From contig CBDFGD010000002.1 in assembly GCA_965246965.1 (NCBI GenBank), forward strand, positions 1,899,968 to 1,963,967: a DNA stretch of 64,000 nucleotides, in the 5' to 3' direction. Within the stretch, counting starts at the first letter, position 1. The number at the start of each line of letters is the position of its first letter. A program made the translations under genes and the position numbers. This stretch comes from Vicinamibacteria bacterium. Lineage in GTDB: Bacteria; Acidobacteriota; Vicinamibacteria; Fen-336; CBDFGD01. Positions 61,840 through 62,593 of this stretch are shown here, in pieces. The notes below the pieces were generated by a model. The model saw nothing but the letters and a program-made list of their open reading frames with translations, did no database searches and had not been told where the DNA came from.

Positions 61840-62001
61840 TGTCATGCGCCAGAGATTTGTCGGCATTCGAGCGCCGATGCATCCCGCCTGACTGCGTCGC
61901 TCATTGGTCAAATACTCCCGGTATTCTCCCTCTTCGACTCCTTGCCAGCCGGGCGCCTCGACGCCCTCGGTGCGCAACAACTTCTGGCGCAGGCCACTAG
62001 T
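61836..62001 (+). repeat. Repeat family copy C
   Basis: Core 61873-61964 matches copies A/B; arms gctagtgtcatgcgccagagatttgtcggcattcgagcgccg / cgacgccctcggtgcgcaacaacttctggcgcaggccactag are inverted complements; overlaps GGDEF stop TAG (61837-61839) and putative start of next gene. Confidence 0.75.
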
Positions 62002-62593
62002 GCCCTTCATTCGGCAGGTTCCCATTGGCGAGGCCACGGGAATCCTGGAACGCCAGTTCGATGCGGCGCTCAGGCGGGCCGGGCGGGTCTGGCACATCCT
62101 CCACGTCATGAGCATCAACCCGCTCGTCTTGCGGGACAGCATGCTGTTCTATCGGACGATCATGTTCGGCGAGTCACCGCTGACACGAGTACAGCGCGAG
62201 ATGCTCGCCACCGTGACGTCGGGCGAGCAGCAGTGCCACTATTGAACGCAGGCTCACGCCCACGACCTCCGGGAAGAGGTCGCCCACGAGATCCCAGACG
62301 CTGCGGCGGCCGACGCGTACGTCCACGCCGTGGCGCGGGACTGGCGTGGCGCCCCGCTCAGTGACGCGGACCAGGCGCTGTGCCGCTTCGCATCCAAGCT
62401 CACGCATCACGCCAGCGAGGTGAGCGCGGAGGACATCGAAACGCTCCGCGCTCGCGGCTTCGACGACCGGGCCGTTCACGACGCCGTTCAGGTGATCGGC
62501 TATTTCAACTACGTCACCCGTGTCGCGGACGGGCTCGGCATCGAGGCCGAGGACTTCATCCGCCACTGGGGACGACCAGAGATGGAGGCCTGA
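62000..62593 (+). CDS. Carboxymuconolactone decarboxylase/AhpD-like peroxidase-related protein with in-frame UGA at CHY-U (probable selenocysteine)
   Basis: ORFs 61904..62245 and 62330..62593 share one frame; TGA 62243-62245 replaces 2nd Cys of conserved CxxC…H redox motif (…EQQCHY*TQAH…); downstream region matches family C-terminus; hairpin cgacctc-cgggaa-gaggtcg at 62263-62282; start GTG 62000 uncertain. Confidence 0.6.

Follow-up and report, generated by a model that had tools for sequence, protein, structure and literature searches.

Does the TGA that interrupts the frame at 62000-62593 (+) of the 64-kb window, the window being the whole stretch of 64,000 nucleotides analysed here, end a protein, result from an error or encode selenocysteine? 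The frame belongs to a high-GC (67%) organism and had been described in a sequence-only reading as a single frame with one TGA at 62243-62245, which is exactly what the sequence holds: 62000-62593 is one frame of 197 codons, and its sole internal stop is this TGA, standing between TSGEQQ-C-H-Y on one side and T-Q-A-H-A-H-D-L-R-E-E-V on the other. Translation would begin at a GTG at position 62000, where VPFI.. aligns to the MPWI.. starts of homologues, and would end at a second TGA (62591-62593), and the coding signal spans the internal stop with a GC3 of 0.87 on both sides. The explanation that we favour, with a probability of roughly 0.92, is that 62000-62593 is a complete gene for one 197-residue AhpD-like (TIGR01926, CMD fold) thiol/selenol oxidoreductase in which the UGA at 62243-62245, codon 82, is read as selenocysteine (Sec, U82).

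The read-through product, with Cys entered for U, reaches 119.6 bits (E 1.2e-34) against the NCBIfam model TIGR01926, 'peroxidase-related enzyme' (AhpD-like), for which the curated cutoff is 81.8 bits. Residues 10-183 align on positions 9-175 of the 178 of the profile, and the protein is a member of the family through a match that covers both sides of the TGA, as had been proposed from the letters alone. In addition, it matches the Pfam CMD family (PF02627) above threshold. Among solved structures, 2OYO (E 8.5e-26) and 6K40 (E 5.5e-23) align over residues 7-181, and their C-L/V-Y-C-A-V-S-H falls column by column on the C79-H-Y-U82-T-Q-A-H86 of the window protein, a C-x-x-U-x-x-x-H motif encoded at 62234-62257 (+). 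In both structures the TGA column is occupied by the second cysteine of the redox motif, C-x-x-C-x(3)-H, and Cys is likewise found there in the relative P0016, so that the catalytic position assigned to the UGA in the sequence-only reading, and the comparison with Cys homologues suggested along with it, both hold. C79 is invariant among the homologues, Glu67 (62198-62200, +; 12 residues N-terminal of C79) and Tyr81 are conserved in at least 90%, and H86 is conserved too. The fold was modelled on P0016, a Cys relative 50% identical to the window protein (pLDDT 91.2), and is the all-helical AhpD/CMD fold with the motif at the N-terminus of helix 80-93. This model has a TM of 0.70-0.76 to 2PFX, 3C1L, 6K40 and 2OYO, and a structure search with it also matches the thiol-dependent debrominase Bmp8, another CMD fold.

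These alignments bear directly on whether the TGA truly terminates translation, in which case the locus would yield two products, an N-terminal peptide of 81 residues and a C-terminal protein with a start of its own. Many genomes are indeed annotated with C-terminal ORFs of about 110 residues and N-terminal ORFs of 81: in a protein search that returned 80 relatives, about 45 are proteins of some 110 residues starting at query residue 83/84, and two database relatives stop at residue 81, ending in ...C-F-Y. However, the TGA is followed by ACG in the window gene, and the first in-frame start, the GTG at 62330, lies 29 codons further on and would lose H86 and the conserved helix; in most orthologues the codon 3' of the TGA is ACN, ATH, AGA or CAY, none of which is a start. 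Moreover, the stop falls inside a single TIGR01926 domain and a single AhpD fold, and a split would part C79 from H86. We consider genuine termination at this codon highly improbable.

If the locus were instead a pseudogene or carried an assembly or sequencing error, the real codon could be TGC or TGT (Cys) or TGG. TGA is one base from each of these, one relative has TGG and one TGC, and the sequence-only reading had suspected an assembly of low quality, with many frameshifts or stops, in which the TGA itself might be an error. The comparison with relatives argues strongly against this. From a scan of 440 relatives, with one genome per species, 80 loci were kept, all of them from metagenome-assembled genomes (MAGs) labelled Gemmatimonadota, Anaerolineae/Chloroflexota, Actinomycetota, Acidobacteriota or Krumholzibacteriia, at least five named phyla. 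In all 80 orthologous loci, each from a different species genome assembled independently, the Sec codon is TGA and in none is it TAA or TAG, with the frames intact and both sides strongly conserved. A motif search accounts for 78 of them; the remaining two, which lie outside the search pattern, also have TGA, as do the loci L006, L089, L090 and L093-L095. The caveat of an error at this codon is refuted by such uniformity, and the supposed abundance of frameshifts and stops finds no counterpart in a GC3-based scan of the window, which shows no excess of broken genes, while the GC3 of the gene continues past the stop. An error or a decayed gene deserves almost no credence here.

Departures from TGA at this codon are of several kinds. 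One close relative only, P0016 (loci L004/L005), is a genuine Cys form, with TGC. Around its gene (10001-10555) are several genes for transposases and group-II-intron reverse transcriptases, with a rhodanese gene adjacent and msrA (PMSR) near, which suggests a mobile or rearranged region. In P0008 (L091:1246-1887, L092:1308-1949) about 30 residues are deleted in frame, as seen in two independent assemblies, and the deletion comprises the whole C-x-Y-U...H-D-L-R-x-E-V segment, that is, the active site and the SECIS. In P0004 (57% identical; L001-L003) the codon of the Sec/Cys column is truly a TGG, for Trp (L001:10244-10246, in the gene L001:10001-10582). P0004 occurs on 10 contigs, of which three, up to 199 kb long and from ENA, JGI and Logan, were retrieved, and the gene keeps the SECIS-like hairpin (GACCUCCGUGAAGAGGUC). 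The TGG may have replaced a Sec codon recently; Trp at this column should put an end to the redox chemistry of CxxU, and a non-Sec residue is tolerated at the Sec column at least in P0004.

Apart from P0004, Trp at the Sec column in database entries mostly has a more trivial origin. For the full-length homologues P0001 and P0012 (L089, L090) the apparent Trp was rejected, as the DNA reads TGA and the protein stems from a code-4 gene call on contigs of about 1 kb; in P0001 the real terminal TGA is likewise read through, giving a spurious 15-residue tail. The W-containing entries P0002-P0015, P0023, P0036 and P0047, again with the exception of P0004, are probably TGA codons mis-called under code 4. 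Entries that show W at the codon are what could speak for a reassignment of UGA throughout the genome, as in genetic codes 4 and 25, with Trp or Gly inserted everywhere. In the window, however, TGA closes 20 of the 36 long coding ORFs and is the commonest stop, and it also closes 62000-62593 itself; since TGA is a normal stop here, the code has not been reassigned. The GC3-based scan of the 64 kb found in-frame TGAs with a coding signal on both sides at two positions only, 12578 and 62243, both of which are conserved in relatives, and we regard reassignment as vanishingly improbable. A third candidate in-frame TGA, at 38193, proved to be an ordinary gene boundary.

Selenocysteine insertion in bacteria calls attention to the RNA just downstream of the UGA, where a hairpin with a 7-bp stem and a 6-nt loop had been pointed out at 62263-62282 (+), 17 nt past the UGA. 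The hairpin is present as described, and among relatives it is both conserved and covarying. It lies within the coding sequence, over the codons H-D-L-R-E-E-V, and consists of the arms cgacctc (62263-62269) and gaggtcg (62276-62282) around the apical loop cgggaa (62270-62275). The distance from the UGA is 17 nt to the stem and 24 nt to the loop, the latter falling within what we take to be the accepted range of the bSECISearch model. In an RNAalifold analysis of 73 distinct TGA-bearing sequences the 7-bp helix is the sole consensus structure, and 98.6% of the 511 pair cells are standard pairs, whereas displacing the 3' arm by 1-3 nt leaves 24-48%. Double-changed cells number 12 against 2.7 expected, a count reached by 0 of 500 shuffles, although the shuffles ignore kinship. 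At the fourth position of the stem, counted from its base, 57 sequences have C-G, 10 have U-A and 4 have U-G, and the change between C-G and U-A couples a synonymous Asp GAC-to-GAU with Val-to-Ile. The apical loop always starts with CG[G/U]G and has the form CG[G/U]GNN. Synonymous positions within the stem are frozen, with Leu encoded only by CUC, the stem Glu only by GAG and Arg only by CGG or CGU, whereas the Glu of the loop, unlike that of the stem, is often GAA. More divergent TGA members, which differ in their residues here, retain a helix as well: L095 (GACUUC/GAAGUC) and L094 (GCGACUUC/GGAGUCGC) at the same position as in the window gene, and L093 with a 7-bp stem that is shifted. In the Cys form L004, the sole Cys gene of comparable similarity and used as the negative control, the hairpin was not found; plasmid Cys homologues, at 25-34% identity, were left out of these controls as too distant.

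Folded singly, the window hairpin is no more stable than its shuffles (z = +0.96), and its significance thus rests on the comparative evidence. The nucleotides of the hairpin are dual-coded and also specify the conserved peptide H-D-L-R-x-E-V; part of the conservation is therefore at the protein level, and the covariation stems from few clades. An Rfam scan of the 64-kb window gave no match at the gathering threshold.

The 64-kb window contains no tRNA-Sec, nor a tRNA of any kind, and tblastn with E. coli SelA, SelB and SelD detected no selA, selB or selD homologue in it. An ARAGORN scan of 60 related loci for tRNAs found no tRNA-Sec, and tblastn of related loci gave SelB matches that were only weak and of the GTPase domain. 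Three Anaerolinea MAGs carry selD upstream of the selenoprotein gene, no more than about 9 kb away (L039:862-1833, L070:60-950 and L071:86-1102; 37-40% identity with the E. coli protein), a proximity that may mean that selenium activation is loosely linked with the AhpD-like selenoprotein.

Given a window free of Sec machinery genes, and given that P0004 has a genuine TGG with the hairpin kept, one could suppose that the UGA is read as a standard amino acid, for instance as Trp by a near-cognate tRNA or a suppressor, so that the protein would be made in full with only one Cys at its active site. However, the column in question is that of the nucleophilic Cys of CxxC in the solved relatives, where Trp would abolish the redox chemistry, and a strictly conserved TGA followed at the distance of a SECIS by a G-loop hairpin is what characterises Sec recoding. 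The linked selD in three genomes, the origin of most 'W' entries in code-4 mis-calls and the use of TGA as a normal stop speak in the same direction, and we judge such a reading very unlikely. Recoding to selenocysteine is also the reading with which the second conserved TGA-plus-hairpin gene of the window, at 12578, is consistent, as it would be expected of an organism that decodes UGA as Sec.

Here we propose that a ribosome arriving at the UGA would meet the hairpin 17 nt downstream, which through its apical part would recruit SelB-GTP-Sec-tRNA(Sec), and that Sec would be inserted at the UGA instead of termination. By analogy with the family, U82 would act as the nucleophile and C79 as the resolving residue in a cycle between selenol/thiol and selenenylsulfide, and the spacing of the residues suggests that H86 and E67 might form a proton relay as in AhpD. 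The product could then reduce a peroxide itself or regenerate a partner peroxidase from its oxidised form, in either case contributing to oxidative-stress defence.

The proposal in the sequence-only reading that AhpD-like proteins are a known bacterial selenoprotein family agrees with the literature. AhpD-like CxxU selenoproteins were first reported from the Sargasso Sea metagenome, with 27 sequences assigned to COG2128 (PMC1088965), and reappeared in the GOS selenoproteome as 'AhpD-like 1, COG2128, CxxU, 299 sequences', fourth in rank (PMC2398784). A 2026 review lists an 'AhpD-like protein, TIGR01926, CxxU' (PMC13188914), and AhpD-like selenoproteins are included in BSepDB (PMC13326102). The window gene shares with this family the TIGR01926 domain, Sec at the second position of the motif, a G-loop hairpin after the UGA and the existence of Cys homologues. 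It has every testable defining feature of this catalogued family, known since 2005 and with MCB9421940.1 as its published exemplar, and shows no categorical difference from it in these features.

Other relatives are less close. The selenoprotein family NF041238 (AhpD_rel_CFYUT, alkylhydroperoxidase-related; 'hypothetical protein 1' of the Sargasso Sea) has nearly the same motif, C-F/H-Y-U-T, and its AhpD-like domain at the C-terminus is homologous, but its members have a further half at the N-terminus and run to about 357 residues, against 197 residues in the window protein. The latter scores 64.5 bits, compared with a cutoff of 175 bits, over profile positions 215-338 only, and falls outside this family. 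DR1765 of Deinococcus radiodurans (6K40), together with the structural-genomics proteins 2OYO, 2PFX, 3C1L and 2PRR, has the same fold as the window protein and belongs to the same family (E 1e-14 to 1e-26); these proteins differ in having Cys rather than Sec, with no in-frame UGA or SECIS, and are about 30-39% identical. DR1765 is the closest characterised relative of the window protein, and its mutant is sensitive to H2O2, with complementation requiring the CxxC, according to a passage in PMC8945050 that cites Zhao et al. 2020.

AhpD of Mycobacterium tuberculosis (1GU9/1KNC), the archetype for the mechanism, has the CMD/AhpD helical fold, the C-x-x-C-x-x-x-H motif and a Glu 12 residues upstream, but is very distant, with a Foldseek E of about 0.02 for the P0016 model. 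The spacing of its E118/C130/C133/H137 is presumably identical to that of E67/C79/U82/H86 in the window protein. Membership in AhpD proper (TIGR00777) was rejected, at 15.8 bits against a cutoff of 191.95. M. tuberculosis AhpD is partnered with AhpC and lipoamide proteins, whereas neither an AhpC nor a lipoamide-protein partner is evident among the four genes that flank 62000-62593.

Within the AhpD-like CxxU family, the window gene and its nearest relatives differ from the catalogued sequences in their hosts, which are Gemmatimonadota, Chloroflexota, Actinomycetota and Acidobacteriota MAGs as opposed to marine plankton, and the Sec form is fixed in the 80 nearest species genomes. We speculate that this clade, from phyla of soil, sediment and wastewater, might be an obligately Sec-dependent orthologous group whose real substrate is perhaps not a peroxide. 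A substrate of another kind comes into consideration as Bmp8 and other thiol-dependent dehalogenases share the CMD fold, and as a natural Trp variant exists. Although we think this unlikely, selenium would, if it were true, be needed for a chemistry new to AhpD-like proteins.

For selenoprotein biology as such the window gene adds little, as AhpD-like CxxU proteins are among the commonest selenoproteins in metagenomes. Its practical value lies in annotation. Public gene calls of this family are wrong in three ways, namely as C-terminal fragments of about 110 residues, as N-terminal fragments of about 81 residues and as full-length code-4 proteins with 'W', and the selenoprotein is thus invisible as such in most MAG records, including that of the window itself. 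The gene probably marks its host as a selenium user and, together with the gene at 12578, points to an under-annotated use of Sec in genomes of the Gemmatimonadota, Chloroflexota and Acidobacteriota type.

The selenoprotein gene is flanked by a cNMP-binding/GGDEF gene upstream, a His_Phos_1 gene and an M20 peptidase gene. The gene of the histidine phosphatase superfamily (His_Phos_1, 62594-63136) has a GTG start that directly abuts the stop TGA of the selenoprotein gene (62591-62596), which points to translational coupling; in the 80 related loci the two genes are not kept together. More generally, the gene neighbourhood, which might have offered a clue to the redox partner, shows no conservation or synteny among the relatives.

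The other conserved in-frame TGA of the window, at 12578-12580, lies in a gene of 940 codons (10865-13687, +), in which Pfam recognises FG-GAP repeats before and after the TGA, followed by UnbV_ASPIC and then a Redoxin domain with WCLPC; a hairpin is found at about 12591-12609. The public record splits this gene in two, 10871-12580 and 12611-13687. Relatives of the N-terminal type all end at ...SGKSMKDT (116 of 116), and close metagenome relatives all have the TGA (22 of 22), followed about 11 nt downstream by a hairpin, GCG[U/C]CA-GGUCG-UG[A/G]CGC, which includes a compensatory pair. Read-through homologues have Asn or Ser at the TGA column, not Cys. No NCBIfam selenoprotein model matches the gene, and no mention of its family was found in the 2026 selenoprotein review, in the BSepDB paper or in a full-text literature search. 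The gene at 12578 is a candidate for an uncatalogued family recoded with Sec or, alternatively, for a programmed switch between a short and a long isoform.
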